Position numbers and translations under genes: made by a program | From: a virus | IMG/VR virus record: IMGVR_UViG_3300035670_000083 | Span: 36,285 to 100,284 of that record | Strand: one strand, 5' to 3' | DNA length: 64,000 nucleotides | Part shown: positions 2,044-38,117 of the stretch, in pieces | How the letters are laid out: every line of letters starts with the position of its first letter | How positions within the stretch are numbered: the first letter of the stretch is position 1 | The notes under the pieces: generated by a model | Databases searched by the model: none | What the model was told of the DNA's origin: nothing | Seen by the model: only the letters and a program-made list of their open reading frames with translations

Positions 2044-2691
2044 TTAAAGTGGAAGTTCTTCTTCTCCTTCTTCACCTTCTGTTTCTTCTCCTTCTATTTC
2101 CTCGAATTCTCCTTGTCCCTGAGCTTGTCCTTGCATCTGAGTTTGTCCCTGAGCTTGTCCTTGCATCTGAGCTTGTCCCTGAGCTTGTCCTTGCATCTGA
2201 GCTTGTCCCTGAGCTTGTCCTTGTCCTTGAGCTTGTCCTTGCATCTGAGATTGTCCTTGCATCTGAGTTTGTCCTTGAGATTGTCCTTGCATTTGAGGTT
2301 CTTCTTGCATCTGTCCCTGTCCTTGCATTTGACCTTGTGGTTGTGCTTCCACTTGAATCTGTGCTTGTTGACCTTGAGGTTGAGTCTGTACTTCTCCTTG
2401 TCCTTGTGCATCACCAGTTAAAGCTCCTGCTGGAATTTGATCAACATTTAAGAAGTTCTGTGTTATATATTTTACAACTTCTTCAGCTATATCAACATCA
2501 CCAAAGAATTGTCTTAGGTTTTTACCAGTGTTGTCTTTCACTTTCTTAACATAAGCGTTAATCATTGATTGTGGTATGTCAATCATTGTTCTCACCTTAT
2601 AGATGTCGTTAACTTGTAGAACAGATTCTTTAATGATCTCTTCTTTTCTTTTTTTGGTTTGATAGTTTCCAAATTTTCTAATATGTTTCAT
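2044..2691 (-). CDS. putative head protein with Gln/Gly-rich and acidic C-terminus
   Basis: MKHIRKF N-terminus, QGQAQMQGQA repeats, EEL-rich end; late promoter motif upstream. Confidence 0.75.
   Translation of the reverse strand: MKHIRKFGNYQTKKRKEEIIKESVLQVNDIYKVRTMIDIPQSMINAYVKKVKDNTGKNLRQFFGDVDIAEEVVKYITQNFLNVDQIPAGALTGDAQGQGEVQTQPQGQQAQIQVEAQPQGQMQGQGQMQEEPQMQGQSQGQTQMQGQSQMQGQAQGQGQAQGQAQMQGQAQGQAQMQGQAQGQTQMQGQAQGQGEFEEIEGEETEGEEGEEELPL
2108..2345 (-). repeat. coding tandem repeat (Gln-Gly-Ala-Met, ~30-bp unit)
   Basis: repeated CTGAGCTTGTCCTTGCATCTGAGCTTGTCC on plus strand. Confidence 0.9.
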
Positions 2692-4364: not shown

Positions 4365-4646
4365 ATGAGTACAATAACAGAAAAAAAATCAAAATCAAAA
4401 GTAGATGAAATACTTTCAAAGCCATTTAAGTTGATTCTTCACAACGATGATTATAATTCCTTCGAATGGGTAATAACTTGTTTGATTAAAGTTTGTGGAC
4501 ATGATCATCAACAAGCTGAGCAGTGTGCTCATATAGTTCATTTTAACGGTGAATGTGATGTTAAAAGAGGTGATTATGAGAAACTATCTGTGATGAAGGA
4601 GAAATTACAGAATGCTGGTTTGTCAGTTACTATAGAATCAAATTAG
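4365..4646 (+). CDS. clpS: ATP-dependent Clp protease adaptor ClpS
   Basis: LILHNDDYNSFEWV...AHIVHFNG signature. Confidence 0.9.
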   Translation: MSTITEKKSKSKVDEILSKPFKLILHNDDYNSFEWVITCLIKVCGHDHQQAEQCAHIVHFNGECDVKRGDYEKLSVMKEKLQNAGLSVTIESN

Positions 4647-4669
4647 TAAAGTATATCAAGAAATAGACT

Positions 4670-4701
4670 GAACCTCACATTACATATACATCTTGTTATA
4701 T
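4670..4701. repeat. attC-like half site A (right arm only)
   Basis: CTCACATTACATATACATCTTGTTA nearly identical to the right arm at 7072-7095. Confidence 0.7.
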
Positions 4702-4779
4702 TCAGTAATTTTTAAATTATTTTCAAAAAATCGTTTTTTTTTTTTATTAATATATAGAATATAAATATTATCAGAAGAA

Positions 4780-4818
4780 ATGAAAAATGTAAAACTATAT
4801 AAAGTGGATACGTATTAA
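4780..4818 (+). pseudogene. truncated cassette remnant MKNVKLYKVDTY
   Basis: late promoter at ~4748, MKxxKL start, stops after 12 codons, followed by a cassette end ACACATAAC. Confidence 0.4.
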
Positions 4819-4830
4819 TTTTTTTATTAC

Positions 4831-4880
4831 ACATAACGTTCCGATTATTTGCGTTCGGTGGGGCGTTACACCACCAATGA
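4831..4880. repeat. attC-like half site B (left arm)
   Basis: ACATAACGTTCCGATTATTTGCG..., no matching right arm/GTTA closing the stem. Confidence 0.55.
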
Positions 4881-4887
4881 TTATTAT

Positions 4888-5720
4888 ATGAGTAAAGAAA
4901 TGAGAAGGTTAATAGTTACTTTTAATAAGTTTGTTATTAAAGAAAAGTCTAATAATATTAAAAAATAGTTTCAAAATATGATGCTCCGTATGGAATTATT
5001 TTTGATGGGGAAAACAAAATATTAGTTGGTGATATGCACCAAACACCAGTTGAATTATCTAAAAAACTTGAAAATAAAGTAGTTAATGTTGCAAACAAAT
5101 ATGGTTATTATGGTGAAGGTATTGGTTTGGAACATAACGAAGCAATCACCAAATCATCTTTTTATGAAAGATTAGACCCCAAAAAACATTATGGTTCTTG
5201 GGATAGAAAATTAATTGAAAGTGGTGAAGTACCTGAAGATAAAAAATATTTTTTTTTGTATGCTTTGTTTTCAAATCCAAAAGAAAATCATAGATTAGAA
5301 AAATTATTGGAAAATACGGAAGAAGAAGATACAATTTTTTATGTCTTACTAAAAACTATACCCGATTGGTCAGCAGATATGGGTAAATTTAGTTTAGGAC
5401 AAAAAGAACTAAATAAATTTCTTAAAGAAATAAGTGAAAATGGAATTGATTTTATTCAAATGTCACAACAAAAAGCAGATGAAAAATCATTATCAGAATT
5501 TTTAGATTTAGGAGAAAAATTACAATGGCCTGAAAAAAATTGGCAAGATTATCCAAATATGGCAGGTAAATTTGCAAGAGTGGCGACAACCATTAGAGAC
5601 CAATTTTTAATTAATGCTGGACCTGGGGTTTATTTTGTCGGTGCGGGACATCTTAAAGATATTGTAAAAATGGGCAAAGAAAAAAAATTATCTTTAATAG
5701 GGGGCGAAAAAATCATGTAA
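4888..5720 (+). pseudogene. frameshifted cassette gene, TraB/GumN(TIKI)-like
   Basis: MSKEMRRLIVTFNKFVIKE... joins the 5034..5720 frame if one A is added in the A6 run 4960-4965; GDMH and YFVGAGHL motifs. Confidence 0.55.
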
Positions 5721-5733
5721 AAAATATTGTGTA

Positions 5734-5781
5734 TAACGTCCGATGATAAACAATCGCTTTAATGTTGTTTATCATTTGTTA
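5734..5781. repeat. attC-like site C (48 bp)
   Basis: TAAC-GTCCG-ATGATAAACAA-TCGCTTTAATG-TTGTTTATCAT-TT-GTTA. Confidence 0.9.
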
Positions 5782-5859
5782 TATTCAGTTAAATTTTTTC
5801 AATTATTTCAAAAAACCGTTTTCTTTATTAATATATAAAAGAAAAATAATATTAAAACT

Positions 5860-6534
5860 ATGAAACATATAAAAAAATATGAAACTTTTCTAGAAAAAAA
5901 ATGGATACTAGGAATAAATGAAAACATTTTTGATAAAATTGAATCACTAGTTAAGGGAAAATCAGACTCTGGTAAAATTATATCCGAATTCTTAACTAAG
6001 AACGGAATTAAAGAAACTGGGACTGCATATTCAATTCTCTATTTGGGCGGTGCTAATCCAGGCAAATCCGAATTAAGTCACCCATTTGATTATTTACATT
6101 ATACACCAGGTATCGCTAAGATTACAGAAGATGGTGTTTTAGTATTAAATGATGAAAAATCTAAATCATTAAAAACACCAGATACATTATCATTTCTAGC
6201 AATTATTGAAAAAGATGATATTGTTAAAAATTGGACATTTGGATTAAAACAAGGGTGTAGTGTAAATAAAAATGATTATACTTTTGATTTAACAAAGGAT
6301 ATTTCAACTCTAACTTTTAAAAAATCTATGTGGTCAATGTTGAAACAAACTTGGATTAAAGGAGAAGATGAAGTTGTAGAACTTGATAATGATATTACTG
6401 AACTTAAAGAGGAAGATACTATATCCTTCAAAACCCCTATGAATATGATAACTCTACAACAATGGGTTGATAAGTTGAATGAGACAGGATGGGTTAAAGA
6501 AAATAGTAAATATTTTAAAGAATATATAAAGTAG
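5860..6534 (+). CDS. cassette gene, hypothetical with capsid-targeting-like N-terminus
   Basis: MKHIKKYETFLE; TAATATATA at 5829-5837. Confidence 0.8.
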   Translation: MKHIKKYETFLEKKWILGINENIFDKIESLVKGKSDSGKIISEFLTKNGIKETGTAYSILYLGGANPGKSELSHPFDYLHYTPGIAKITEDGVLVLNDEKSKSLKTPDTLSFLAIIEKDDIVKNWTFGLKQGCSVNKNDYTFDLTKDISTLTFKKSMWSMLKQTWIKGEDEVVELDNDITELKEEDTISFKTPMNMITLQQWVDKLNETGWVKENSKYFKEYIK

Positions 6535-6617
6535 GCAATAATCCACAAATAAAAAACACCAATTCGTTAAGTGAAATTGATTATTTTATATCCACAATTG
6601 GAAAACGAAACAGAACT

Positions 6618-6665
6618 TAACGGTTGAGAATATGTGTTCGTTTTAATGACACATATTCTTTGTTA
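6618..6665. repeat. attC-like site D (48 bp)
   Basis: TAAC-GGTTG-AGAATATGTGT-TCGTTTTAATG-ACACATATTCT-TT-GTTA. Confidence 0.9.
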
Positions 6666-6691
6666 TATTTAGTATCAAAAATTTTATACAA

Positions 6692-6934
6692 ATGAAAAAA
6701 TGTAAATGTATTAAAGAATCTTCTTGGTTTTTAATTGATGATTCCTTCGATAAGAATTCTAAATTAAATGGTGGTGGATTTTCTTTTCAAGTAGGTAGTG
6801 AATATGATTATTTTGAAGAAGATACACCATTTGGAAATGGTATGTCGGTTATCCATCCTAAACATGGGAAAGAAAATCCTACTGGTTTTGATGAAAGAAG
6901 ATTCTACGAACACTTTGAAATAATAAACTCATAA
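6692..6934 (+). CDS. cassette gene, small hypothetical
   Basis: 80-aa ORF filling the interval between sites D and E. Confidence 0.75.
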   Translation: MKKCKCIKESSWFLIDDSFDKNSKLNGGGFSFQVGSEYDYFEEDTPFGNGMSVIHPKHGKENPTGFDERRFYEHFEIINS

Positions 6935-6952
6935 AATTTTTGATATTGAACC

Positions 6953-7095
6953 TAACGATACTCAGATATATTTAGGTTTTCTTTTTAATGTAGTGTGAGA
7001 TTTGAAACACTACCTGTCAATATACCAACAAACTCTATTAGAAGCACTTACCTTCAATTAACCACCGAATCTCACATTACATATACACCTTGTTA
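6953..7095. repeat. attC-like site E (chimeric, 143 bp)
   Basis: left arm of G/J type, right arm of I/A type, inner stem ATGTAGTGTGAGATT/AATCTCACATTACAT. Confidence 0.75.
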
Positions 7096-7204
7096 TGTGT
7101 AGGTGTGATTATTTACCACCAAACTCTATTCGGAGAACTGAAAGAAAATTTTAGAAAAAAGAAGGGAGGGAAATTTAATTCAGAATATTTTATATATATC
7201 ATCT

Positions 7205-8020
7205 ATGATACTCAAATTTAATCAGTTTATAACTGAAAGACTTTCCTATTCTGAAGATGTTGAGATGATCTCAAAGATTATAATTGAATACTTATATGGT
7301 AAAGAAAACTGGGAATCAGAAGAAGTGATAAAAATAGATAATTCGGTTATAAATGAAGTAAGAATACAATTCATAGATAATTTAAGTAAGTTAGGAAAAA
7401 AATCATCATTTAATCCAAATAAATCAGATTATAATAATCGTATGATATTTTTAGAATTTGATCCAGATGAAATCACCGAAGGATTGTTAAATCATGAAGT
7501 ATTTCATGGGTGGGAATGGATTCGAAATGAAGGAAAACATTTAACTAATTCTTTTCAATTCGCAATTATTCAATTAAATAATTACTTTGAAGAAGATGAA
7601 AACATATCTGAAATTATTCAACTATTTTATTTAATGTCAGATGCTGAAATTAGATCTCATTTAAATAGTGATATATTTGAATTTAAAAGATGGAAAGAGG
7701 ATAAAAATACCACTTCGATGGAAGAAATAGATTTATTAATAGAGGAAACAGATACATTTCAAAATTATCAATTTGTGAAAAAATTTAATCTAAACGAATA
7801 TTTAAATAAATTGAGTACTGAGAAATTAGATGAATTTATATCAGCAGTTGAACAAATGAAGTATATGAAAGATGGTGAAGAGTCTGAAATTATGGTGAAG
7901 AGATTTTCTGATTTAGAGAGAAGTAAATTTATACAAAAGTTAAATATTATACACAAACAACAAAGTGAAAAAATTACTAAATATTTAGGAAAATTAATAT
8001 TATATTTCAGAAACTCTTAA
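7205..8020 (+). CDS. cassette gene, HExxH metallopeptidase-like with capsid-targeting-like N-terminus
   Basis: MILKFNQFITE; LNHEVFHG. Confidence 0.7.
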   Translation: MILKFNQFITERLSYSEDVEMISKIIIEYLYGKENWESEEVIKIDNSVINEVRIQFIDNLSKLGKKSSFNPNKSDYNNRMIFLEFDPDEITEGLLNHEVFHGWEWIRNEGKHLTNSFQFAIIQLNNYFEEDENISEIIQLFYLMSDAEIRSHLNSDIFEFKRWKEDKNTTSMEEIDLLIEETDTFQNYQFVKKFNLNEYLNKLSTEKLDEFISAVEQMKYMKDGEESEIMVKRFSDLERSKFIQKLNIIHKQQSEKITKYLGKLILYFRNS

Positions 8021-8061
8021 ATTTTTTTTAGAAAAAATTTATTTGATACATTTTTAATTAC

Positions 8062-8069
8062 TATATTTG
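8062..8069 (+). promoter_or_regulatory. Bacteroidota-type -7 box TATATTTG
   Basis: TAnnTTTG, with TTTG at 8042-8045 upstream. Confidence 0.55.
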
Positions 8070-8088
8070 CGTATATAATAAAAATAAA

Positions 8089-8342
8089 ATGGAAAATCTC
8101 AAACAAGAAAATAACTACGAAAAATTTGTTATCAGACAGAAGGTGGTTGGGTATTAAAAGAAGGCGTGGCTAAAAAGGAAGAGATAAGTTTTTTTGTTGT
8201 TAGTCCTGATGGTAAAGAACTTACTTGTTTAGATGGTTCAAATATATTCTCTTCTGTTGATAAATCTGATTTGTTAGAATCGTTTAATATGAGGTTTAAA
8301 ACAAACTGTGTTAGTGTAGAAAGACCAAATGTTTTTGAATAA
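8089..8342 (+). pseudogene. frameshifted small cassette gene
   Basis: MENLKQENNYEKFVI then a 1-nt shift near 8135 into EGGWVLKEGVAKKE...PNVFE*. Confidence 0.55.
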
Positions 8343-8368
8343 GAAAATAATTGAAAAATAATTCAATA

Positions 8369-8448
8369 TAACGGTTGCAAATATGAGAAGTAAATTTTTT
8401 CCATAAAAAAATAGAAAAATCAAAATTTATTTCTTATATTTGTTGTTA
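8369..8448. repeat. attC-like site F (80 bp)
   Basis: TAACGGTT-GCAAATATGAGAAGTAAATTTT...AAAATTTATTTCTTATATTTGT-TGTTA. Confidence 0.85.
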
Positions 8449-8474
8449 TATTTAGTAAAAATTAATTTATACAT

Positions 8475-8654
8475 ATGAAATACGAAGCACTTAAAAAAGA
8501 ATATTATGCAGTTTATGAAAAAGAACCAAGACACCAGAATGAAAAGAATGGTGTGATACTTGCACCATATAACACGAAAGAAGAAGCTGAACAAGCGAGA
8601 ATTAAATATGGTTATAGTGATGATAACTACTATGTTGATAAACTCATAAATTAA
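8475..8654 (+). CDS. cassette gene, 59-aa hypothetical (below ORF-track cutoff)
   Basis: MKYEALKKEYYAVYEKEPRHQNEKNGVILAPYNTKEEAEQARIKYGYSDDNYYVDKLIN*, fills the F-G interval. Confidence 0.75.
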   Translation: MKYEALKKEYYAVYEKEPRHQNEKNGVILAPYNTKEEAEQARIKYGYSDDNYYVDKLIN

Positions 8655-8667
8655 TTTTTATTGAATA

Positions 8668-8789
8668 TAACGATACTCAGATATATTTAGGTTTTCTTTT
8701 TAATATATACTAAAAACAATTTATGAAAGATAATAAACACATAAAAAGTTTCAACGATCATCAAGAAAACTTGAATATATCTGATGTTA
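8668..8789. repeat. attC-like site G; loop contains late promoter and gene start
   Basis: TAACGATAC-TCAGATATATTTAGGTTTTC...GAAAACTTGAATATATCTGA-TGTTA; TAATATATA 8701-8709; ATG 8723. Confidence 0.9.
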
Positions 8790-9004
8790 GTGGTAGTGAA
8801 ATATTAAAATATCTTGATGATAAATATCATGTAAAAGATAATCTAATGATTGTTGGTAGATTTGATAAGAACAAAAAATATAATTATATTCAATTGTCTA
8901 ATGAAATATCAAAGGTATTTGGTTTGTCAACACAACAATCATTAGATTTAGTAGAAAAGTGGAAAGATATTAGATTTGAGAAAATTATGAAAAATAGATT
9001 TTAA
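8723..9004 (+). CDS. cassette gene starting inside site G
   Basis: MKDNKHIKSFNDHQENLNISDVS then unique C-terminus. Confidence 0.8.
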   Translation: MKDNKHIKSFNDHQENLNISDVSGSEILKYLDDKYHVKDNLMIVGRFDKNKKYNYIQLSNEISKVFGLSTQQSLDLVEKWKDIRFEKIMKNRF

Positions 9005-9018
9005 TATTTAATTATCAC

Positions 9019-9066
9019 TAACGTCCGATGATAAACAATCGTTTTAATGTTGTTTATCATTTGTTA
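9019..9066. repeat. attC-like site H (48 bp)
   Basis: differs from site C at one loop base. Confidence 0.9.
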
Positions 9067-9177
9067 TGTGTAGGTGTGGATTATTTACTACTAAACTTCA
9101 ATCGGAGAACTGAACAAAAATTTTAAAACAAAAAGAAGGGTGGGTTTTTTAATCTTACTATTTATATATAAAAGAAA

Positions 9178-9606
9178 ATGATGAAAGATTTGAGACAGTT
9201 TATTAAAACAACCATACGTGAGTTTTTGAATGAAGCATACATTGATGAGGATGGTAATTTAAAAGACTTTAATGATAAAATATTCTATGATTTTGATAAA
9301 ATTAAAAAGTTTGTAGATTGGTTTCAAAGTGAATATAGTGATTATACTCATAAACAGGGTTGGTCTATATTCGATTCTGATACAGAAGCACCTAATGAAA
9401 AATATCATAGTGAAAGAACTTTTAATGGTAAAAAATTGAATGGATATTATTGGCAAGTTCAAAGATTAGATTCACCAAGTGATGACGAAGCATTATTTGG
9501 GAAATTACCAAATGATTATAAGGCTGATGATTTAGCAAGAAAGTTAGGTTTAATGGTTGATGAATACGGTGTGGTTTATGGTTGGGATGGACAATCTTTT
9601 TTATAG
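9178..9606 (+). CDS. cassette gene, hypothetical with capsid-targeting-like N-terminus
   Basis: MKDLRQFIKTTIREFLNE; TTATATA upstream. Confidence 0.8.
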   Translation: MMKDLRQFIKTTIREFLNEAYIDEDGNLKDFNDKIFYDFDKIKKFVDWFQSEYSDYTHKQGWSIFDSDTEAPNEKYHSERTFNGKKLNGYYWQVQRLDSPSDDEALFGKLPNDYKADDLARKLGLMVDEYGVVYGWDGQSFL

Positions 9607-9676
9607 TGTGTGGGATTTTTCTTTTAAAATTTTCAACCGAAATATTGATTAGAACGATGAATGGAACACTTACACA

Positions 9677-9766
9677 TAACGGATGGGTGTATATGTAGGT
9701 TTTTTAACTTTAAAATTTAATATATACTTATGAACTGAATAAAAAACTTACATATACACCTTGTTA
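9677..9766. repeat. attC-like site I (90 bp); late promoter in loop
   Basis: TAACGGATG-GGTGTATATGTAGGTTTTTT...AAAAAACTTACATATACACC-TTGTTA; TAATATATA 9718-9726. Confidence 0.9.
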
Positions 9767-9797
9767 TGTGTTAGTAAAAAATAAAAGGAAAAAGAAT

Positions 9798-10103
9798 ATG
9801 AAAAGATTAAAATACATTAAAAGATTCAATGAATCAAATGAAATGGATATTGAAATTGAATTAATTGGTCCTGATATAGATGATATTTTAGATGCAATTA
9901 ACTTCATAAACAATAACTATGATGTGAGTGTAAATCCAACAGATTTTCAAGAAGGTTCTGATATGCCTTATGCTCATAAAAGAAATCAAAATTATTCAAT
10001 TTTTGTTAAGTTAAATCCTAGTGGTGATGAAAAAAGTCATATCAGATTTATTAATGATTTGTTGGATGAAAACGGATTCTCTTGTAGGTTGTATATGATT
10101 TAA
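9798..10103 (+). CDS. cassette gene, acidic hypothetical with capsid-targeting-like N-terminus
   Basis: MKRLKYIKRFNES; ATG 9798 preferred over 9768. Confidence 0.8.
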   Translation: MKRLKYIKRFNESNEMDIEIELIGPDIDDILDAINFINNNYDVSVNPTDFQEGSDMPYAHKRNQNYSIFVKLNPSGDEKSHIRFINDLLDENGFSCRLYMI

Positions 10104-10130
10104 TGATATTATTTATTTTCTTATTACACA

Positions 10131-10260
10131 TAACGATACTCAGATATATTTAGGTTTTCATTTTTAATATATAAACAAAAATAATTTAACAACATGAAAA
10201 GTTCAAATAATGTAAAAAGTTTCAAAGAGTTCAATGAAAACTTGAATATATCTGATGTTA
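10131..10260. repeat. attC-like site J; loop contains late promoter and gene start
   Basis: same arms as site G; TAATATATA 10165-10173; ATG 10194. Confidence 0.9.
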
Positions 10261-10424
10261 GTGATAGTTTTTTGTCACCCGAAGAATTTTTAATTGATTG
10301 GGAAGGTAAAGATGATTCAACACACCCCAATCAAGATATTAGAGACGAATGGACTAAAAGAATTAATCAATTAAAAATTTATTCAAAAATGGTTCTTGAT
10401 AACACTTTAAAAAATTATCACTAA
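10194..10424 (+). CDS. cassette gene starting inside site J
   Basis: MKSSNNVKSFKEFNENLNISDVS...; its stop codon is the TAA of the last TAAC. Confidence 0.8.
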   Translation: MKSSNNVKSFKEFNENLNISDVSDSFLSPEEFLIDWEGKDDSTHPNQDIRDEWTKRINQLKIYSKMVLDNTLKNYH

Positions 10425-10460
10425 CTATATTATATATGTAATGACCTATAAATAATTGAT
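10416..10460. other. candidate attI-like primary integration site
   Basis: final ATCACTAAC not followed by G or a hairpin, just 5' of the integrase. Confidence 0.55.
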
Positions 10461-10461
10461 T

Positions 10462-11265
10462 ATGAATGAAAAGGGTAAGTCAACTTTAAAGATTTGTGAA
10501 CAAAAACTTAATTATCTAAATTATTCTAAAAGAACGATTGATAATTATTTATCACATATTAATAGATTTTTAAAATCACAAAATAAATCATGTTTGCATT
10601 TATCATCTAATGATTTTCAGTCATATTTAGATAATTACAAATTTACTTCTATATCGCAACAAAACCAAGTTATTAATTCTATTCGATTTCTTTATAAAGA
10701 AGTTCTCGGTAAAAAGTATGATAAAGTCTCTTTCAAAAGACCTAAATCTGAAAAGAAACTTCCACAGGTTATAGATGGTGATTATATAAAATCACAATTA
10801 TCTAAAATTGATAATCTTAAACATAAGGCAATCCTCACACTAACATACTCGGTTGGATTAAGGGTTTCTGAAATAACCAATCTTAAAATTGAAGACATTG
10901 ATTCAAAAAGAATGATCATTCATATAAAAAATGCAAAAGGAAAGAAAGATAGGATTGTTCCACTTTCTGAAAATGTTTTAAATTTGCTTAGATATTATTG
11001 GAAACAATATAAACCAAAAGAATACCTTTTCAATGGATTATCCGGTAGATATTCAATTCAATCCTGTCAGAAAATATACAAAAAATATATTGATGAAAAA
11101 TCATCATTTCATACATTAAGACATTCTTCATTTACTAATTTACTTGAGTCAGGAACAGATTTGCGGATAATACAGAAAATAGCAGGTCATTCAAGCTCAA
11201 AAACAACCGAAATATATACTCACGTTTCAAATCAAATTTTAAGGAAAGTTAAATTACCCATCTAA
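10462..11265 (+). CDS. IntI-related tyrosine recombinase (N-terminal SAM-like domain plus catalytic domain)
   Basis: YSKRTIDNY, SQQNQVINSIRFLY, GLRVSE (R), KGKKDR (K), HTLRH, GHSSSKTTEIY. Confidence 0.92.
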   Translation: MNEKGKSTLKICEQKLNYLNYSKRTIDNYLSHINRFLKSQNKSCLHLSSNDFQSYLDNYKFTSISQQNQVINSIRFLYKEVLGKKYDKVSFKRPKSEKKLPQVIDGDYIKSQLSKIDNLKHKAILTLTYSVGLRVSEITNLKIEDIDSKRMIIHIKNAKGKKDRIVPLSENVLNLLRYYWKQYKPKEYLFNGLSGRYSIQSCQKIYKKYIDEKSSFHTLRHSSFTNLLESGTDLRIIQKIAGHSSSKTTEIYTHVSNQILRKVKLPI

Positions 11266-13464
11266 TCCCCAAGATTTTCTAGCTTCTACCATCCTTCTAT
11301 TATAAGAGATTTTATTTCTTCTTATATCCAGTAATTGTTTATAATCAACTCCTTCTTCATATGATATTTTATTTAAAATATCATCAACTTTATTTCTTAT
11401 CTGTATATCTTCTAAATTATCAAAATAATCATCTACCATCCCTCTGAAATCATTCTTACCAAAAATAGATGTTAGGTTAACCAAAGTCATAACCGTATCA
11501 TCATTTTTATTACCATCAGCTTTATAAGTAATATTTCCAGTTCTTGTTGTATGTTTTATAAATGTTGTCATTTCATCTATATTTTCGTTATTATAAATAA
11601 TAATTGATCTATCTTGCATTTTTTCTTGGTAATCTTTCACCATTAGGTTTTTATTCTCACCAACTTTTAATCCTATTTTTTCATCTAACGCATCTACTCT
11701 GTGTTTAAATCTAAAGAATATAGATGATCCATAGTTGTTATTTCCTTCAAATACATTCGGTAAGTGAGCAAGTAACTCATATCCGTATGTATTGACTTCT
11801 AATACAGCTTTTAAATTATCTGTATCAAAATGATCAAAAGCTAAAACATAAAGTAATTCTGATAATTCATTGACGGATATAAGATTGCTTCTATACATTC
11901 CTATTTGTTCAAGTTGAATAAAGTCAAGTATGTTTCTATAATTCTTATTTTGTCTTTCTATTAGATCTATCGGCTTTGATTTTAATTTGAAAATATTTAT
12001 CACCGTATAGTCCTGTCCTAATCCTTCAGATACATCTATACTTAATAGTATCCGATAATTTTTTCTTATTTGTGGATTATAAATTTCTTTATTCGGATGC
12101 CATTTTAGATCTTTGTAAGAGAATTTAAGTTTTTCTTCTATTTCAGGAATTTCCTGCCATTCAAATAATGTTTTTCTATCAGTTAATTCTTTTATTAATC
12201 CATCATCTAATAATGATCTAGATGAGTTAATAAACTTCAAGTCAAATTCTTGGTTAAAAGCTTCTTCACCACCAATATCTTTGATTGTTTGTTTTTTCCA
12301 AGTTGTTATTTCAGCAATTTCTGGTAATTTAATATCATTTATTGTTTCTTTAATGATATCTTCTTCCTGACAATCATCAGAATTAAAAACATGAACAACC
12401 CACTTATTTAACTCGTCATCAAATCTCAGCTCTGATTTATTTTTTGGAAAAGATTCTTTAATCCTACTTAAAACATCTTCTGGTTTGACATTGTAGTGAT
12501 CTAATTTCTTTTGATTCAATCTTATGTATGTCACGAATCTTTTCGGAACTTGCCACCAATAAACTCTTTTTGCCACATAAGATGATTTTTCGCCTTCAGG
12601 CTTTTCAGCTTCTATTAAAAGTTTGTGAAATAAATTAAATCCGTTTGGAGTAGAGGTTATTATAATTTTAGAATTATCGATGTTGGCAATAGTAGGAAAC
12701 ACCGATTTGTAGAATTTATCTGCAATATTATCTGGTAGATAAGCAAACTCATCTAAATATAAAAAGTCAGCAGATTGACCGATAGAAGCGGTTTTTGTTG
12801 TTGCAAATCCTTTTATACGACTTTTATTTTCAAATGACATGAATTTCTCATTCCACTTTTTAATACCTTGTTGTAAGAAAAATGGAAGTCTTTGGTATAT
12901 TTCTTTCATTTTATCAAGGATCTCAGTTGCTGTATCCAACTTATTTGCTGTTACAAGAACGTTTTTGTTATTATTAAAAAGAACAAAATGTAATATGGTT
13001 ATTGCTGATGTGATAGTATTATGTGATAAAATACCATTTGTATAATATCTATGATTTGGATGATCAATAGATAAATCAAACATAGATAGTTTATGATTTG
13101 TTTTTTCTATCATTTTAACTTTTGATATTCCTTGATCAGTTTGTATGTAATCGCCTATTTTTAAATCTTTTATGTATATTTGATTAAAGTCCACATCAAA
13201 TAAAATGTGATTATCAGCACCGTTAAGAAATAGTCCATTTTCTAGTTTTAAATTATATTCACTATAAGGTTGTGTTATATGTATTTGCGGAGCTATTTCA
13301 TAACCAGTGTCTGTTTTCACTGATAAGTTGCAACTTATTGTATTCAATATCTTTTTGGATATATCATGTTCATTCAAATCTAAATTTCTGTATTCGAAAA
13401 CTTCTATATACTCAATTAATTTTTTTATTAAATATATTATGATAAGAGTAAAAAATCTAAACAT
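11254..13464 (-). CDS. terminase large subunit C-terminal part preceded by split-intein IntC (149 aa)
   Basis: ...MFDLSIDHPNHRYYTNGILSHN|TITSA; Walker B LYLDEFA, ITSTPNG, nuclease DVSEGLGQD and DDTVM. Confidence 0.92.
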   Translation of the reverse strand: MFRFFTLIIIYLIKKLIEYIEVFEYRNLDLNEHDISKKILNTISCNLSVKTDTGYEIAPQIHITQPYSEYNLKLENGLFLNGADNHILFDVDFNQIYIKDLKIGDYIQTDQGISKVKMIEKTNHKLSMFDLSIDHPNHRYYTNGILSHNTITSAITILHFVLFNNNKNVLVTANKLDTATEILDKMKEIYQRLPFFLQQGIKKWNEKFMSFENKSRIKGFATTKTASIGQSADFLYLDEFAYLPDNIADKFYKSVFPTIANIDNSKIIITSTPNGFNLFHKLLIEAEKPEGEKSSYVAKRVYWWQVPKRFVTYIRLNQKKLDHYNVKPEDVLSRIKESFPKNKSELRFDDELNKWVVHVFNSDDCQEEDIIKETINDIKLPEIAEITTWKKQTIKDIGGEEAFNQEFDLKFINSSRSLLDDGLIKELTDRKTLFEWQEIPEIEEKLKFSYKDLKWHPNKEIYNPQIRKNYRILLSIDVSEGLGQDYTVINIFKLKSKPIDLIERQNKNYRNILDFIQLEQIGMYRSNLISVNELSELLYVLAFDHFDTDNLKAVLEVNTYGYELLAHLPNVFEGNNNYGSSIFFRFKHRVDALDEKIGLKVGENKNLMVKDYQEKMQDRSIIIYNNENIDEMTTFIKHTTRTGNITYKADGNKNDDTVMTLVNLTSIFGKNDFRGMVDDYFDNLEDIQIRNKVDDILNKISYEEGVDYKQLLDIRRNKISYNRRMVEARKSWGLDG

Positions 13465-14393
13465 TTTTGTATTGTTTCTTTTTTATTCTTACGATATTCA
13501 GAATCCCATATTACTAGAACTTCAAATCCGTGAGATTTTGCTACATCTAACTTTATTTTATCTTTTTCCCAAATTTCTTCCGATTTTCTTCCCTTTCTGA
13601 AAGGATGTGGATAATCATCACTTTTAAAAATATTTGGATTGGCATGATACTGATCACCATTATATTCAATTATCTTTTTATTTTTAAGATAAACAAAATC
13701 ATACATCCAGATACCACCACCATTCTTAGGTAGTCTAAATTCACCACCATTTGTAGCATATAGAGAATCTTTTTTGTTTATACTAATGGAATCAAATAGT
13801 TGCTGGCTACTTTTTGAGTATCCTTGTTTAAGATTTCCATTTTTAAGTAAAGAATTTTGCCATTTAATCTGCCTTTCTGTAAAAATTCTTTCACCATCCT
13901 CAGTTCCATATTTTTCTATACACTTATCTAAGTTAAATGTAGTTTGTCTTTCTCTTCTTTTTTCAATTGATTCATCTTCTGTAAATCCTTTATCTATCCA
14001 ATATTCTAATTTTGTAGGATTTGGTTTTTCTTCGTTAACTGATTTTATAAAATTTAATCTTTCTTCATCAGATTCATAATTTTTGAATTCTTTTGAAAAC
14101 GGACTTCTACTTTTTCTTTCTTCAGATGTAGTATTTGACTTGTGATTAGGATTTTTTTCACCAGAGAACATATCAGAGAACATCTTTTTATATTTTTCTT
14201 CTTTCATGTGTTTTCCGGAGTTTTTAGTAGTTTGTTTTAAATCTGATTTACACATTAATGGTGATCCCGGAAAAAGTTTTTTATATTCTTTTGATGACAT
14301 TCCATTGTGCTTATGTTTTAAGTGTTTACCATATATCCTTTTGCATTTTTCACCACAAATTCTACAAGTTATTAAGTTATCTATTTCTTCCAT
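13437..14393 (-). CDS. free-standing Vsr/DUF559-like homing endonuclease
   Basis: CRICG..HLKHKH zinc finger; IIEYNGDQYH...GFEVLVIWDSEY; lies between the two TerL fragments. Confidence 0.8.
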   Translation of the reverse strand: MEEIDNLITCRICGEKCKRIYGKHLKHKHNGMSSKEYKKLFPGSPLMCKSDLKQTTKNSGKHMKEEKYKKMFSDMFSGEKNPNHKSNTTSEERKSRSPFSKEFKNYESDEERLNFIKSVNEEKPNPTKLEYWIDKGFTEDESIEKRRERQTTFNLDKCIEKYGTEDGERIFTERQIKWQNSLLKNGNLKQGYSKSSQQLFDSISINKKDSLYATNGGEFRLPKNGGGIWMYDFVYLKNKKIIEYNGDQYHANPNIFKSDDYPHPFRKGRKSEEIWEKDKIKLDVAKSHGFEVLVIWDSEYRKNKKETIQKCLDFLLLS

Positions 14394-14407
14394 ATTTTAT
14401 ATATTAT

Positions 14408-14914
14408 TTATGGCTTCTCACCAATTAGGTAAAGTATATCATATAGTTTTATTTTTATTCTTTCTAATAAAGTTAGATCTCTTTCCAATGATGTTAGAAA
14501 ATAGTATAATCTACCAATACGAGTGTGTATTTCTATATCATTATCCTTCAGAATAATTTCCGTATTAAATGATATACATTTTCCGGTCTGACGGCTGGCC
14601 ATTAGTATATTGAATCTGTTGTTAAAAAAATTATCTAAAATTTCTTCTTGATAATCTCTTAATTTAATTTTTACTGGAGATCCTTTTTCTCCCTTTACCC
14701 AACAATAATTCTCAGCGAAATAATGAATATCCATTTTACATTTAATGTATTCATCGATTTCATGTGGAGTCATTTTAAATGAAAGTCCAGATTTTCTCAA
14801 TCCTATTACCTTTTCATGAAAGGGATTTTCGACATTTTTCAATATCTCACCCATGTTCAACATTTCTATCTTTTCATTTACTAATTTAGTTGTCCATATT
14901 ATTTGTTTCGACAT
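14408..14914 (-). CDS. terminase large subunit N-terminal part plus IntN (56 aa)
   Basis: DIHYFAENY, LRDYQ, Walker A SRQTGK followed by intein start CISFNT (Cys codon 14576-14578). Confidence 0.92.
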   Translation of the reverse strand: MSKQIIWTTKLVNEKIEMLNMGEILKNVENPFHEKVIGLRKSGLSFKMTPHEIDEYIKCKMDIHYFAENYCWVKGEKGSPVKIKLRDYQEEILDNFFNNRFNILMASRQTGKCISFNTEIILKDNDIEIHTRIGRLYYFLTSLERDLTLLERIKIKLYDILYLIGEKP

Positions 14915-21890: not shown

Positions 21891-22496
21891 ATGAAATGGT
21901 TAAAGAAATACTCTATTTTCTTAGAACAAGATGAAACTTCTGATGATATCAATTCAACAGAAGAAACTTCTTTGATAGATGATAATGACAAAACAAATCA
22001 AGAATCGTTAGATCTCATTCAAAAAGATTTATCAGAATTTGGATCAAAAAAAGGAGTTGTTGAGGATATTTTATCTGATATGGAGAAGAATGATTCTCAA
22101 ATTGATTCTGAATTACAACAAAAGGTTTTTAACAATCAAAGAGAAGATTCTAAAAGAAATAAGTATCTAAGAATGTTAGTATCTCTTCATAAATTAAAAA
22201 GAAGAACAGATAAACTTGCTTTAGCTATTGAAACTGATGTAGAAAAAAAGTCAGAAGTTCAAAAGCAAATCTCAGATCTTATAGAAAGATTCAATCAATT
22301 AGAAAATCCATCTCAGAAAGTCAAAGTTGATTCACAGAGAAAGAAATCAGAAGAATATCTGAAGGAATTGAATCTGAAAATCAATGATAATAAAAAGGAA
22401 TTGGCTTTATCAGAAAAGAACTATGATAAGAAAAAAGAAGATTTTGAGAAACAAATGAAAATAGAAGAGGAAAAGATAAAATCATTACAAAAATAG
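21891..22496 (+). CDS. coiled-coil protein with capsid-targeting-like N-terminus
   Basis: MKWLKKYSIFLE. Confidence 0.75.
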   Translation: MKWLKKYSIFLEQDETSDDINSTEETSLIDDNDKTNQESLDLIQKDLSEFGSKKGVVEDILSDMEKNDSQIDSELQQKVFNNQREDSKRNKYLRMLVSLHKLKRRTDKLALAIETDVEKKSEVQKQISDLIERFNQLENPSQKVKVDSQRKKSEEYLKELNLKINDNKKELALSEKNYDKKKEDFEKQMKIEEEKIKSLQK

Positions 22497-26953: not shown

Positions 26954-27334
26954 ATGAAACATTTAAGAAAATTCAATGAAGGTTTTATGGACATCTTTAA
27001 GAAAAAGAAAAAAGAAGAAGATCCTAAAGAAAATTTGGAAAAAATAAGAGTTACTGATTGTGATTTTTGGGCAGAAAAAGGTCGATCCGAAGATACCTAC
27101 TATATCTATCATGGTTGGGGATTTGGTGCTAAGCCAATGGGATATGTTAAAGAAATTGATGGAAACTTAATTCTTAATATGAGAGATTATTTTGGAAATG
27201 GTATAAATAAAGTAAAAGTTAAAAGTGTGGAGCAAGCTCTTAAATACTTGGATAAATTAAACAAAGAGAAGAAACAAAAATATAGAGAGGAAGAAAAAAG
27301 ATTTGATAAGGATATATCAGATGAAGAACTTTAG
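26954..27334 (+). CDS. hypothetical with capsid-targeting-like N-terminus
   Basis: MKHLRKFNEGFMDIFKKKK. Confidence 0.75.
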   Translation: MKHLRKFNEGFMDIFKKKKKEEDPKENLEKIRVTDCDFWAEKGRSEDTYYIYHGWGFGAKPMGYVKEIDGNLILNMRDYFGNGINKVKVKSVEQALKYLDKLNKEKKQKYREEEKRFDKDISDEEL

Positions 27335-35280: not shown

Positions 35281-36396
35281 ATGAGATATTTAAAAACATA
35301 TGAGAATTTTGAACAACCCGAAGGAACAGGAACAGAAAGCTCTTGGGAAGTTGAAATAGATGGCAATCCTGTAAAGGTAACATTAACTGAGTTGATAGAT
35401 TATATTGATGGTGTTGTTGAGATTGATCCTAATGAAATTAAAGAATTACTTATAGATACTGATAGAGATCCAAAAAGAGTAGATGCGGCGGATTTAGATT
35501 ATCCGATTATTTTAAGTATGAAAAATGGTGAATATAAGAATATAATAGATGGACAGCACAGAGTTGTAAAAGCTTTAAAAGATGAGGTTCCTTTAAAAGC
35601 AAAAATTTTAAATCTTGATGATGCTCCTGAAAAGTATAGAAAAATATTTGATTCAAAATCAAATGAAAGTTATTTTAATTTATATCTTGATTCTAAAATA
35701 GGAGTAGATGAACTTATCAATAGTTTAGAATTAAGAATTGATGAGAATATAATTTCTAATTTTAAGTCTTTTATTGATAAGGGTAAGAAATTAACAGAAG
35801 AATCTATAAATAAGATATTAGGATGGATATCTAAACAACTTGAAGTTGAATCTTATATTTTTGATAAAATTATTGAAAATTTAAAAAAGGTAGGTAGTAA
35901 AATCATAGAACTTTTATTGGCAGTTTTAAAAAGAATAAAAGATTTTAAAGATAAACATCCTAAAATATTCAAAGCGATTGTAATTATTCTTACTATAGTT
36001 ATTATTATACTTATATCTGCGGTTGTTGCTTATTCACAAACCACTGGTCAACCTGTGAGTATTGAGGAATTCGGTATAAACTCAGAGATGTTAGATGCGA
36101 TGATAGGATTCTCATCTCAGTATAAGTTAGATCCAAAAATACAAGCAGCATTGGTTGACTTAAAAGATGGATCAATTGATTTAGATTGGAATAATGTTGA
36201 GACATCTAAATCATATATTGAATCAATAAGAAAATCAATGATATCTATGAAAGATGAGGAATATTTTTGGCATAGATTCAGTAATTGGATTGAAATAGGT
36301 GAAAAATATGTTGATGTAATTCACAAAAAAGTTACAATGGTTGGACAAGATTCAAGTTTTCAAAGTGATACTTATAGTTTTTATACAAAAAAATAG
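35281..36396 (+). CDS. ParB/Srx-like N-terminal domain protein with TM helix
   Basis: MRYLKTYENFE; YPII...IIDGQHRVVKA; AIVIILTIVIIILISAVVA. Confidence 0.65.
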   Translation: MRYLKTYENFEQPEGTGTESSWEVEIDGNPVKVTLTELIDYIDGVVEIDPNEIKELLIDTDRDPKRVDAADLDYPIILSMKNGEYKNIIDGQHRVVKALKDEVPLKAKILNLDDAPEKYRKIFDSKSNESYFNLYLDSKIGVDELINSLELRIDENIISNFKSFIDKGKKLTEESINKILGWISKQLEVESYIFDKIIENLKKVGSKIIELLLAVLKRIKDFKDKHPKIFKAIVIILTIVIIILISAVVAYSQTTGQPVSIEEFGINSEMLDAMIGFSSQYKLDPKIQAALVDLKDGSIDLDWNNVETSKSYIESIRKSMISMKDEEYFWHRFSNWIEIGEKYVDVIHKKVTMVGQDSSFQSDTYSFYTKK

Positions 36397-37593: not shown

Positions 37594-38117
37594 TCTTCTA
37601 AGTCTCCATCATAACCTTCATCATTATTTATTTCAAAGCATATTCTTAGTGTTTCTAGATCCATGCCGAAGGTAACATCTAAGCAATTTGAAAATTCCTT
37701 CAATCTTGGTGTGGTTTTATTTAAAAGAACTGAGAAAAGTTCAACTATTTTCTTTTGTGCTCTAATTGAATCATCTATTGCTAATTTTGCTTTTTCCAAT
37801 TTTGATATTTGATATTCTATATTTGGTATAGTATCTGGATAACCTTCATCATTTATTGATTCAGGTGAATCATAATCTGGAATTATATCCATTAGATAGT
37901 TATAAGAGAATGAGATATCCTCAGGGTAAATATCTAAGTTTAAAGGTGGTAAATTAACATGACAATCAAAAAATGGATCTTCTTCATTTGAATAGTCATG
38001 AAATGATAATTCAATATTTGAAAATTGATCTTCAATATCTACTTCTAAAATTAATTTAAAATCTTCGAAATCTAACTCTTGAGATATATTTTCATTGAAT
38101 TTTTTCAAATGTTTCAT
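37590..38117 (-). CDS. acidic hypothetical with capsid-targeting-like N-terminus
   Basis: MKHLKKFNEN. Confidence 0.75.
   Translation of the reverse strand: MKHLKKFNENISQELDFEDFKLILEVDIEDQFSNIELSFHDYSNEEDPFFDCHVNLPPLNLDIYPEDISFSYNYLMDIIPDYDSPESINDEGYPDTIPNIEYQISKLEKAKLAIDDSIRAQKKIVELFSVLLNKTTPRLKEFSNCLDVTFGMDLETLRICFEINNDEGYDGDLED

Follow-up and report, generated by a model that had tools for sequence, protein, structure and literature searches.

A phage-borne, integron-like array of hairpin-bounded gene cassettes beside a tyrosine recombinase

The window, a 64,000-nucleotide stretch of a 100-kb phage contig, carries a tyrosine recombinase gene that adjoins an array of short genes separated by hairpin sites with the consensus TAAC-G-NNN-stem-loop-stem-T(T)-GTTA. 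Array and recombinase together quite probably constitute a phage-borne, integron-like gene-capture platform, a reading based on the hypervariability of the arrays, exchange boundaries at TAAC, cassette-specific end complementarity and an attI-like junction. For comparison, about 80 related phage recombinase loci were used. These phages have the recombinase and the sites in common but almost no genes, so the locus appears to be the phages' own means of acquiring and exchanging accessory genes. No description of such a phage system was found in the literature searched.

The initial annotation had proposed an integron-like device that collects proteins packaged in the virion. Its recombinase and array core is strongly supported by the related loci, while virion packaging, integron-family membership and a comparison across the clpS-terL locus did not stand; the last fails as no relative has either clpS or terL within 10 kb of the recombinase. 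The carrier is plausibly a jumbo phage of lytic type; CheckV rates the 100-kb contig as 18% complete, and the contig has DNA matches to phage records of 634-642 kb.

Sites, cassettes and recombinase of the window

The features of the array, all on the + strand, are as follows.

4667-4699, +: distal remnant directly after clpS, long-hairpin 3' arm followed by TTGTTAT, left half absent; 91% identical to 7064-7096
4834-4880, +: left-half remnant with TAACG and the 5' arm of a site of the ~125-nt class, right arm absent; resembles complete sites in related loci L019 and L038
5034-5720, +: first cassette ORF, 228 aa, no Pfam or PHROG family
5734-5781, +: 48-nt hairpin site, near-identical copies in many related phage contigs
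5860-6534, +: cassette ORF, 224 aa, ORFan
6618-6665, +: 48-nt hairpin site, fully compensated stem variant; identical site and leader in L016
6692-6934, +: cassette ORF, 80 aa; 26-nt complementary ends 6662-6687 and 6931-6956
6953-7096, +: chimeric degenerate site, left arm of 8668 type plus the right part of another long hairpin
7097-7204, +: conserved leader module, paralogue of 9067-9177, common to relatives
7205-8020, +: cassette ORF, 271 aa, ORFan
8166-8342, +: small ORF, 58 aa, sharing the cassette interval of 7205-8020
8369-8448, +: 80-nt hairpin site, 22 pairs including 3 G.T
8475-8654, +: cassette ORF, 59 aa; 26-nt ends 8445-8470 and 8646-8671, 92% complementary
8668-8789, +: 122-nt hairpin site; loop holds a TATATA box and the 8723 gene start, 3' arm and GTTAG core coding
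8723-9004, +: cassette ORF, 93 aa; first 25 codons site-encoded and common to the 10194 gene
9019-9066, +: 48-nt hairpin site
9067-9177, +: conserved leader module; L038 and the window share 161 nt at 91%, from the left core
9178-9606, +: cassette ORF, 142 aa; complementary ends (from 9063 and up to 9681)
9677-9766, +: 90-nt hairpin site, z -6.7
9798-10103, +: cassette ORF, 101 aa
10131-10260, +: 130-nt hairpin site with the 10194 gene start inside
10194-10424, +: last cassette ORF, 76 aa, closest to the recombinase
10422-10455, +: attI-like junction, a cassette's terminal TAAC followed by TATATTATATATG; recombinase start ~35 nt downstream
10456-11265, +: tyrosine recombinase, Xer/IntI-like, 269 aa; likely start ATG at 10462

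With a threshold of 13 pairs, a scan of the window returned seven sites on the + strand and none on the - strand, 20 shuffles giving 0-2 each, and the whole 100-kb contig held no further strong site outside the array. The seven complete sites, all on the + strand between 5734 and 10260, have stems of 13-23 pairs, and their folding as single-stranded DNA matches the proposed fold (z -2.8 to -6.7); three remnants accompany them. Eight complete sites had been listed initially, of which those at 5734, 6618, 8369, 8668, 9019, 9677 and 10131 were recovered, whereas the one at 6953 is the chimera, whose right part ends in TTGTTAT at 7090-7096 and whose fold has a z of -1.7. The half sites proposed alongside are present: 4670 as a right half only, 4834 as a left half only and 10422 as TAAC joined to TATATTATATAT. 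The motif TTGTTATRT occurs 10 times in the 64 kb, 7 of them within 4693-9769.

In the sites at 8668 and 10131, the coding region includes the 3' arm and the GTTAG core, and the start codon with about 25 codons therefore lies in the loop; a recurring LNISDV peptide is the 3' arm and core translated in frame. TATATA boxes are located in or after several sites. The gene that had been claimed from 4888 runs for 26 codons before a stop, and the long ORF uses a different frame, from 5034; as the leader-like start (4889) ends so early and in another frame, the first-cassette gene may be decayed.

The positions checked in the recombinase (R, K, H, R, H and Y) are invariant across 78 phage homologues. 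The enzyme lacks the IntI-specific domain, which according to two reports (PMC8138268, PMC7790495) is indispensable both to integrons and to the recombination of attC sites in single-stranded form, so that it must process hairpins differently or use another form of the site.

Conservation and strand bias of the hairpins

Across 80 recombinase loci, 358 sites lie on the recombinase strand and 3 on the opposite strand; 340 of the co-oriented sites are upstream of the recombinase and 18 downstream. The inner stem of the 48-nt class is 99.6% paired across 22 distinct sequences, with compensatory double changes at 9 of 12 pairs and a covariation score of 0.497, compared with 0.133 in shuffles and at most 0.097 when the partner columns were slid. 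Judged from these alignments, the hairpin structure is under selection. Rfam returned no family match for the hairpins.

Stem imperfections are strongly biased as well: with a detection that treats both strands alike, the + strand shows 602 G.T or T.G against 93 A.C or C.A. Cassette ORFs of the phages lie on this folding strand in 240 of 245 cases. Bacterial relatives feature the same wobble bias, there on the strand opposite the cassette ORFs (antisense to 12/12), which argues for folding of DNA and not of mRNA.

Exchange boundaries, cassette ends and the junction

The comparison of relatives for cassette reordering and breakpoints, suggested initially, revealed hypervariable arrays with exchange boundaries at TAAC. 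Among 264 cassettes across the related loci, 240 are singletons, and the loci L010, L011 and L028 contain the same cassettes in a different order. L006 and L079 have 315 nt in common at 100% identity, from the TAAC of one site to the TAACG of the next, between unrelated flanks, and many shared segments end at 0/-1 or +3/+4 relative to TAAC. The hairpin accompanies the downstream cassette in 21 of 38 pairs, against 2 of 26 for the upstream cassette (p 1.3e-4). In 10 of the 38 pairs the downstream sequence is common and the hairpin different, and in three closely related contigs a spacer variant goes with the upstream cassette, so part of the exchange occurs at the right core or else through homologous recombination inside identical hairpins.

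The two ends of one cassette match each other at 9.8 of 16 positions, compared with 5.55 for the flanks of one site and 5.59 for random pairs, and wobbles in these pairings are 238 sense-strand G.U-compatible versus 28. Just upstream of the recombinase, 64 of 71 loci have the junction TAAC|TATnATATAT, whose left flank shares the consensus of internal sites. One cassette's TAAC end is followed by the junction and the recombinase in L010 and L011, and by a G-hairpin in L028. The junction may also serve, or be conserved simply, as the promoter of the recombinase gene.

Cargo

Nameable cargo consists mostly of orphan DNA methyltransferases, which account for 8 of the relatives' 10 longest array ORFs, and the cassettes probably carry accessory genes whose function would be largely counter-defence. 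In the window, 5 of 9 array ORFs carry the MKxIKxF-type N-terminus noted at the outset; the motif is not array-specific, as 11 of 59 ORFs outside have it too, nor is it enriched in the relatives' arrays (9% versus 7%). The proposal that these leaders target cassette proteins to the capsid for packaging in the head is thus unsupported, given a genome-wide leader and a relatives' cargo of methyltransferases.

Proposed mechanism and alternatives

The recombinase encoded at 10456-11265 is presumably the catalyst and would most likely act on structured sites made by folding of the + strand, the substrate being, we infer, folded single-stranded or extruded DNA. In the predicted fold, TAAC would pair with GTTA as an analogue of the R box, followed by an asymmetric unpaired spacer (5' G+NNN, 3' T or TT). 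Beyond the spacer, a stem of at least 12 bp with a variable tip would be the putative L-box analogue. Exchange would take place at or beside the TAAC of the folded strand, which would make the mobile unit the hairpin, the gene and its 3' end up to TAAC. Excised cassette circles presumably exist, and each could rebuild a longer stem out of the cassette's own complementary ends; the candidate insertion point is the junction TAAC|TATnATATAT immediately before the recombinase gene. Cassettes appear to have their own expression signals and are read on the folding strand toward the recombinase.

An unlikely alternative holds that the hairpins are regulatory elements, PeSL-like terminators plus promoters between small genes of a hyperplastic region, where shuffling would be a side effect of the phage's homologous recombination at repeated hairpins, and that the recombinase is unrelated to them. 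PeSLs are indeed conserved composites of stem-loop and promoter that flank ORFans and form mini-circles without a dedicated recombinase (PMC2839356, PMC4122927), and the TATATA boxes, the ~40 bp of homology offered by identical 48-nt hairpins, the upstream-following spacer variant and the right-side breaks in 10/38 pairs all suit it. The sites are nevertheless confined, in the 100-kb contig, to the array beside the recombinase, and lie just upstream of it in 340/358 cases among relatives; TAAC boundaries join different hairpin classes and unrelated flanks with only ~5 nt in common, the fold is antisense in bacterial relatives, and neither the cassette-specific complementary ends nor the conserved junction of TAAC and recombinase receives a role.

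It is very unlikely that the structures act mainly as RNA, with a long-range stem enclosing each cistron, the local hairpins serving as RNase III-like processing or stabilising sites and DNA mobility being secondary. Sense-strand G.U-compatible wobbles are enriched in hairpins and cassette-end pairings and each cistron's ends are complementary to each other, so that the phage G.T bias and own-end pairing, taken alone, fit RNA structure too; against this, the bias is antisense to 12/12 cassette ORFs in bacterial arrays, Rfam gave no match, and at 8668 and 10131 the likely promoter sits in the loop, so that a transcript starting there would lack the 5' arm. The TAAC boundaries, the junction and the link to the recombinase are also left unexplained. 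Highly improbable, finally, is an array that forms an insertion hotspot for miniature transposable elements with GTTA...TAAC terminal inverted repeats, a TAAC target and a transposase elsewhere. Its attractions are cassette-specific terminal inverted repeats of 16-26 nt, invariant 4-nt ends and identical units in unrelated contexts, but all units share a single orientation in a single array beside the recombinase, no transposase is seen in the locus, and strand-specific wobble would not be expected if a transposase bound the inverted repeats as duplex DNA. Site-flanked copies were not seen outside arrays: the own contig has none, and the lone homologue elsewhere, 69% identical to the 9178 ORF, is part of a 634-aa ORF in another phage contig that is itself without sites.

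Relation to known systems

Returning to the integron-like reading, the locus resembles integrons in its tyrosine recombinase adjoining a one-orientation array of short unrelated genes, in imperfect palindromes of 48 to ~130 nt with invariant AAC...GTT ends and structure conserved over sequence, in the folding of one strand with exchange at its AAC end (conventionally described as G|TT of R'), in a distinct junction site at the 5' end of the integrase gene with the same site polarity to it, and in arrays hypervariable among relatives. It differs in a recombinase without the IntI-specific domain, scoring 160 bits against the NCBIfam integron-integrase cut-off of 265, in cassette ORFs on the folding strand (240/245) with apparently their own promoters, some within the hairpin loop, and in own-end complementarity of 16-26 nt beyond the core. 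Its spacer is an asymmetric bulge, the 12-bp stem of its shortest class is perfect and free of extrahelical bases, and the carrier is a huge phage. Membership of the integron family as defined is ruled out by the missing domain and by ORFs on the opposite strand relative to site polarity.

PeSLs of T4-type phages (PMC2839356, PMC4122927) likewise combine stem-loop and promoter around ORFans in variable regions, with cassettes gained and lost between close relatives and circular intermediates proposed in both systems and detected for PeSLs. They are spread over several hyperplastic regions and exchange by homology within the repeat without a dedicated recombinase, whereas the phage array is single, with a conserved adjacent recombinase, invariant 4-nt cores, a junction site and no flanking homology at boundaries. 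CALINs and integron fragments in phages, including virulent ones (PMC9892861), also carry attC-type sites and methyltransferases, but theirs are canonical attC sites (IntegronFinder), usually at least two without an integrase, or fragments of bacterial integrons, while a phage-lineage recombinase, sites and junction are kept together here in ~60 distinct contigs.

The recombinase's best sequence match is XerA of Pyrococcus (4a8e, E 8e-33, end-to-end alignment), and the top NCBIfam model for this simple two-domain tyrosine recombinase is XerA_Arch, although its score of 175.8 is below the family cut-off of 220. In contrast to dif, a single ~28-bp site, the hairpin arrays have conserved arms 40-120 nt apart in the duplex, which can meet by folding only.

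Chromosomal systems of Bacteroidota and Desulfitobacterium, of which a description as integron-like systems without the IntI domain was not found in the literature searched, encode recombinases 41-49% identical that also lack this domain. Their arrays consist of TAAC...GTTA hairpins that share the bulge geometry and the 5'-G:3'-T wobble bias of the phage sites, and a similar ATATAnTAGTTA motif adjoins the recombinase in 3 of 10 loci checked. Unlike in the phages, the array lies 3' of the recombinase and the ORFs occupy the non-folding strand, as in canonical integrons.

Setting of the array in the phage genome

Huge phages appear, on balance, to own a native integron-type gene-capture system, in which an integrase devoid of the I2 region recombines folded-DNA sites and the self-expressed, inverted cassettes form a fast-turnover counter-defence store; together with relatives in Bacteroidota and Desulfitobacterium, it would represent a second, unrecognised integron-like branch. 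The window makes up the final 64 kb of an IMG/VR virus contig of 100,284 bases, with a CheckV completeness estimate of 18%, and the G+C content of the window DNA is ~27%. DNA searches gave matches only in clpS and a short stretch, to three huge uncultured phage records; the matches covering clpS alone belong to records 634 and 642 kb in size, likewise of uncultured phages. A T4-type large terminase is encoded in the window as well, and the contig fits a piece of a very large phage. The array stretch is bounded by clpS and a tyrosine recombinase gene.

Features of the array stretch and its flanks (window coordinates)
4365-4646, clpS (Pfam ClpS)
4667-4699, site remnant, right half
4834-4880, site remnant, left half
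5734-10260, + strand, seven complete hairpin sites
7097-7204 and 9067-9177, copies of the conserved leader
10422-10455, junction upstream of the recombinase gene
10456-11265, + strand, tyrosine recombinase (Pfam Phage_integrase and Phage_int_SAM_4)
11254-14914, - strand, large terminase gene, fragmented

The terminase arrangement looks like a split or invaded intein: the N part of 168 aa closes with what resembles the start of an intein (..GKC ISF..), a 318-aa ORF with only a weak zinc-finger-like match lies between the terminase parts, and the 736-aa terminase ORF opens with an intein-like C half (..SHNT), with Terminase_6N starting from residue 150. A 215-aa ORF at 2044-2691 (- strand) carries long low-complexity Q/G/M-rich repeats (..QGQAQGQ..).

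At least 207 relatives of the recombinase, with 58-81% identity, were found in IMG/VR on contigs of up to 362 kb. The initial annotation had proposed the clpS-terL locus as the frame for comparing related phages, a synteny that is absent, since neither clpS nor terL lies near the recombinase in any relative; the conserved unit is therefore the recombinase together with its array.

Hairpin sites

A structural scan for TAAC and GTTA located 38-190 nt apart, with a stem of at least 13 pairs and spacers of 2-7 nt and 0-3 nt, uncovered seven window sites, every one of them on the + strand and inside 5734-10260, while the - strand gave none and 20 shuffles gave 0-2 each. No further strong sites occurred in the whole 100-kb contig. 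Folding of the seven as single-stranded DNA recovered the proposed fold with z-scores of -2.8 to -6.7. The sites are largely as the initial annotation described them; the supposedly complete site at 6953 is instead a chimera in which a left arm like that of 8668/10131 is fused to the right-hand portion of a different long hairpin, and it has no single fold. An Rfam search of the array region returned no relevant family. Hairpins 8668 and 10131 enclose a TATATA box, a start codon and ~25 codons, and their 3' arm and GTTAG core are translated as ...NLNISDVS.

The same scan in 80 loci of the relatives revealed 358 sites on the recombinase strand versus 3 on the opposite one, 340 of them upstream and 18 downstream of the recombinase, in arrays of up to 17 sites. 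A second site cluster downstream of the recombinase was observed in a few related phage contigs (L008, L059 and L071). The sites fall into length classes of 48, ~79, ~88 and ~125 nt. A near-unchanged 48-nt sequence is common to many contigs, and its variants have wholly different yet matching stems around a constant 11-nt loop. Among 22 distinct 48-nt sites the inner stem was 99.6% paired, with both-side changes at 9 of 12 pairs and a covariation score of 0.497, compared with 0.133 for shuffles and at most 0.097 for slid partners. If the system operates as proposed, the 48-nt site and its compact recombinase could be turned into a tool for structure-specific recombination.

Folding strand and form of the substrate

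G.T and A.C wobbles in the stems, which were detected alike, amounted to 602 G.T/T.G versus 93 A.C/C.A, and this G.T excess on the + strand indicates that the + strand is the one under selection. The folding strand of the phages is their mRNA strand too, so in the phages taken by themselves the hairpins may equally be read as RNA structures. In the bacterial relatives, however, the same bias is antisense to 12 of 12 examined cassette ORFs and cannot be mRNA structure, which settles much of the choice between DNA and RNA. In duplex form, moreover, the two conserved arms of a site are 40-120 bp apart and meet only by folding, favouring folded or extruded DNA as the substrate.

Cassette boundaries and mobility

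In total, 240 of 264 inter-site segments had no relative among the other loci (blastn), and the shared ones run from the TAAC of one site to the TAACG of the next. The related phage loci L006 and L079, for instance, have 315 nt in common at 100% identity, with unrelated flanks and next hairpins of different classes. The order of shared cassettes differs among three nearly identical contigs:

L010, X-1-2-3-4-5-X
L011, a-b-6-4-5-X
L028, 6-X-1-2-3-4-...

Where the downstream 40 nt were shared and the upstream were not, the hairpin was common in 21 of 38 site pairs, versus 2 of 26 pairs in the reverse situation (Fisher p 1.3e-4). This linkage of the hairpin to its downstream side indicates that the usual unit is a hairpin plus the following gene up to the next TAAC. 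The downstream leader was common and the hairpins different in 10 of the 38 pairs, and one spacer variant tracks the upstream cassette, so that right-core exchange, or homologous exchange within identical hairpins, also occurs. These boundaries point to exchange at one end of the site, TAAC, as in integrons. The integron-like reading, put forward from this one sequence by the initial annotation, is well supported by the comparison of relatives, including the hypervariability of the arrays and the TAAC boundaries, and predicts that the system is active.

The 5' end of a cassette also resembles the complement of its own 3' end, with a mean of 9.8 matching positions over the 16 nt beyond the core, compared with 5.55 for the flanks of one site and 5.59 for random pairs (p 1e-49). 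Wobbles in this pairing were again biased on the + strand (238 G.T versus 28 A.C), and a one-base bulge was apparent by eye in some of the cassette-end stems. In a circularised cassette, its own complementary ends would extend the TAAC/GTTA stem of its site.

A leader of ~110 nt (GTGTAGGTGTGG...GAAGGG(A/T)GGG) follows GTTAT in many cassettes, including the two window copies at 7097-7204 and 9067-9177 and those in the phage loci L011, L025, L042, L048 and L079. It often precedes an N-terminus (..FIKTTIREFLNE) that is itself conserved although the rest of the protein is unrelated, and it pairs partly with the cassette 3' end. The 48-nt hairpin with its leader (window 9020-9250) reached ~80x the depth of the flanking cassettes in contigs from the probable source metagenome, so many other copies of the module must exist in the community. 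Logan contigs break at the hairpins with short-sided joints and are uninformative either way on excision or circles.

An attI-like junction

In 64 of the 71 loci whose sequence reaches far enough, the TAAC just upstream of the recombinase gene is followed by TATnATATAT rather than by G plus a hairpin, counted with a strict motif because a loose pattern matched many random places. The junction precedes the recombinase match by 25-92 nt, and its left flank has the consensus of the internal sites (A at -8, T at -7, T at -6). In L010 and L011 one cassette end (...GTGTATAAC) leads into the junction motif and the recombinase, whereas in L028 a G-hairpin follows the same end. It is inferred from these arrangements that the junction may serve as the cassette insertion site, an analogue of attI. 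Its likeness to the TATATA boxes before cassette genes means that it may double as the recombinase gene's promoter. Extra junction motifs (TAACTATTATATAT) were observed away from the recombinase in three related contigs (L059 at 1234, 13622 and 18352; L073 at 2300 and 5001; L071 at 10175), and no second recombinase was found near them.

The recombinase

Across 78 phage homologues, all 254-271 aa long, the R, K, H, R, H and Y positions that were checked do not vary. The closest solved relative is XerA (4a8e), which aligned end to end, while the Vibrio integron integrase VchIntIA (2a3v) aligned only at residues 16-174 and 260-308; between the aligned parts the query has 36 residues versus 85 in 2a3v, so the region holding the IntI-specific domain is missing. 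All NCBIfam scores stayed below the family cut-offs, including a two-piece match to the NCBIfam integron integrase TIGR02249 (160 versus 265) and a match to XerA_Arch NF040815 (175.8 versus 220). The additional domain, comprising the I2 helix region near patch III, is the criterion that IntegronFinder applies (PMC4889954), and judged by its sequence the recombinase is not an IntI under this usual definition. Published work treats this domain as essential to integron function and to recombining single-stranded attC sites (PMC7790495, PMC8138268). A classification of tyrosine recombinases describes the insertion as 'not fully conserved' in its integron-like subgroup (PMC8138268). If the reading holds, the phage system would offer a natural test of whether the IntI-specific domain is needed for recombination of hairpin sites.

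Comparison with known systems

The usual view takes integrons to be devices of bacteria whose defining part is an integrase with a domain specialised for hairpin DNA. Their attI adjoins the integrase gene and receives the cassettes, extrahelical bases set the strand choice, and exchange takes place between G and TT of R', which equals AA/C on the folded strand. Integron cassettes have no promoter and are transcribed from Pc; their ORFs occupy the non-folding (top) strand. As in integrons, a tyrosine recombinase adjoins the array in the window and in the relatives, where the array lies directly upstream, and the sites are attC-type imperfect palindromes with AAC...GTT ends and variable length, in which structure is kept more than sequence. 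Read on the - strand, the likeness extends to the layout: the recombinase gene points away, the junction is at its 5' end and the cassettes follow, each site having its AAC end first and its GTT end last, with exchange at the distal GTT end and folding of the complementary strand.

Different from integrons, the recombinase is without the IntI-specific domain, and 240 of 245 phage cassette ORFs are on the folding strand. The cassettes appear to bring promoters of their own, with TATATA boxes and start codons lying within or after the sites. Each cassette shows the long end complementarity, and the bulge is asymmetric (4-5 nt versus 1-2 nt). In the 48-nt class the inner stem is perfect and no extrahelical base is evident, the asymmetry arising from the bulge and the conserved G.T pairs. 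The system appears to work like an integron, yet lacks two defining features of the family.

Dimer resolution of the Xer (XerA) type acts on a single dif-like duplex site of chromosomes or plasmids, but here the family score is under the cut-off and arrays of as many as 17 hairpins accompany the gene. PeSL repeats of T4-type phages occupy several variable regions and exchange by homology inside the repeat without a dedicated recombinase (PMC2839356, PMC4122927), whereas here one array is located beside a recombinase, with its boundaries at TAAC and hairpins of differing class on either side. Phages are known to contain canonical attC clusters and fragments of integrons (PMC9892861), while a literature search of incomplete coverage found no description of a phage system combining a recombinase with a hairpin array. 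If the integron-like reading is true, viruses collect and exchange accessory genes by the integron strategy.

Relatives in bacteria and cultured phages

The nearest GenBank phage integrases, those of Cellulophaga phage Ingeline and Polaribacter phages Freya and Leef, are 34-40% identical, and no TAAC...GTTA sites were found in these cultured flavobacterial phage regions. Bacterial genome representatives contain hundreds of homologues with up to 52% identity, mostly in Bacteroidota. In four chromosomes, those of Desulfitobacterium sp. Sab5, Flavobacterium cheonanense, Arundinibacter roseus and Pseudopedobacter beijingensis, arrays of TAAC...GTTA hairpins lie on the 3' side of a recombinase that is likewise without the IntI domain and 41-49% identical to the phage recombinase.

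Hairpin arrays in the chromosomal loci
L102, 9732-16335
L154, 9862-12280
L155, 11642-15187
L118, 10711-12266

Their cassette ORFs are on the non-folding strand, and the folding strand antisense to the ORFs is the canonical integron geometry. No canonical integron integrase was found anywhere in the four genomes, and the chromosomal arrays may be integrons overlooked by current definitions. If the second branch is real, current tools would class it at best as arrays without an integrase, and some 'integrase-less' arrays of Bacteroidota and Firmicutes would have an unrecognised integrase beside them.

Cassette cargo

Searches of the window cassette proteins against Pfam and PHROGs gave no significant family, and the gene of cassette 7205 had no homologue in IMG/VR. 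The payload at 9178-9606 has one IMG/VR homologue (69% identity), internal to a 634-aa ORF without a Pfam family (L086, another phage contig, 4786-6690) in surroundings with neither sites nor a recombinase, a hint that pieces of larger genes can end up in cassettes. In relatives, the ten longest ORFs of the arrays encode eight DNA methyltransferases (five N6_N4, two D12 and one MT-A70), one glycosyltransferase and one RNA ligase. A cargo of mostly unknown small proteins and orphan DNA methyltransferases points to counter-defence, which is a reasonable inference for its role; the arrays would then be a ready catalogue of candidate anti-defence genes.

The T4 capsid-targeting sequence of internal proteins is a short peptide at the N-terminus, which only packaged proteins have and which the prohead protease cleaves off. 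A start of MKxIKxF type, which had been likened to it, is indeed carried by 5 of 9 window array ORFs, but it is not specific to the array, as 11 of 59 window ORFs outside have it too, and it is not enriched in relatives (9% of array versus 7% of other ORFs). An LNISDV-like peptide, present in 31 of 443 array ORFs versus 0 of 1088 others, is the site itself in frame. Packaging of the cassette proteins in the virion, as the initial annotation had suggested, is therefore unsupported. The Peptidase_S77 (prohead protease) profile had no match in the 100-kb fragment, but none in the control either. An N-terminus of MK(H/Y)LKK(F/Y)NE type opens 16 of 68 non-overlapping window ORFs, 11 of them outside the array; it may be a signal for targeting or for translation, or may reflect common descent. 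Examples are as follows.

Window ORFs with this N-terminus
1362-1976, - strand
21891-22496
26954-27334
35281-36396
37590-38117, - strand
46863-47138
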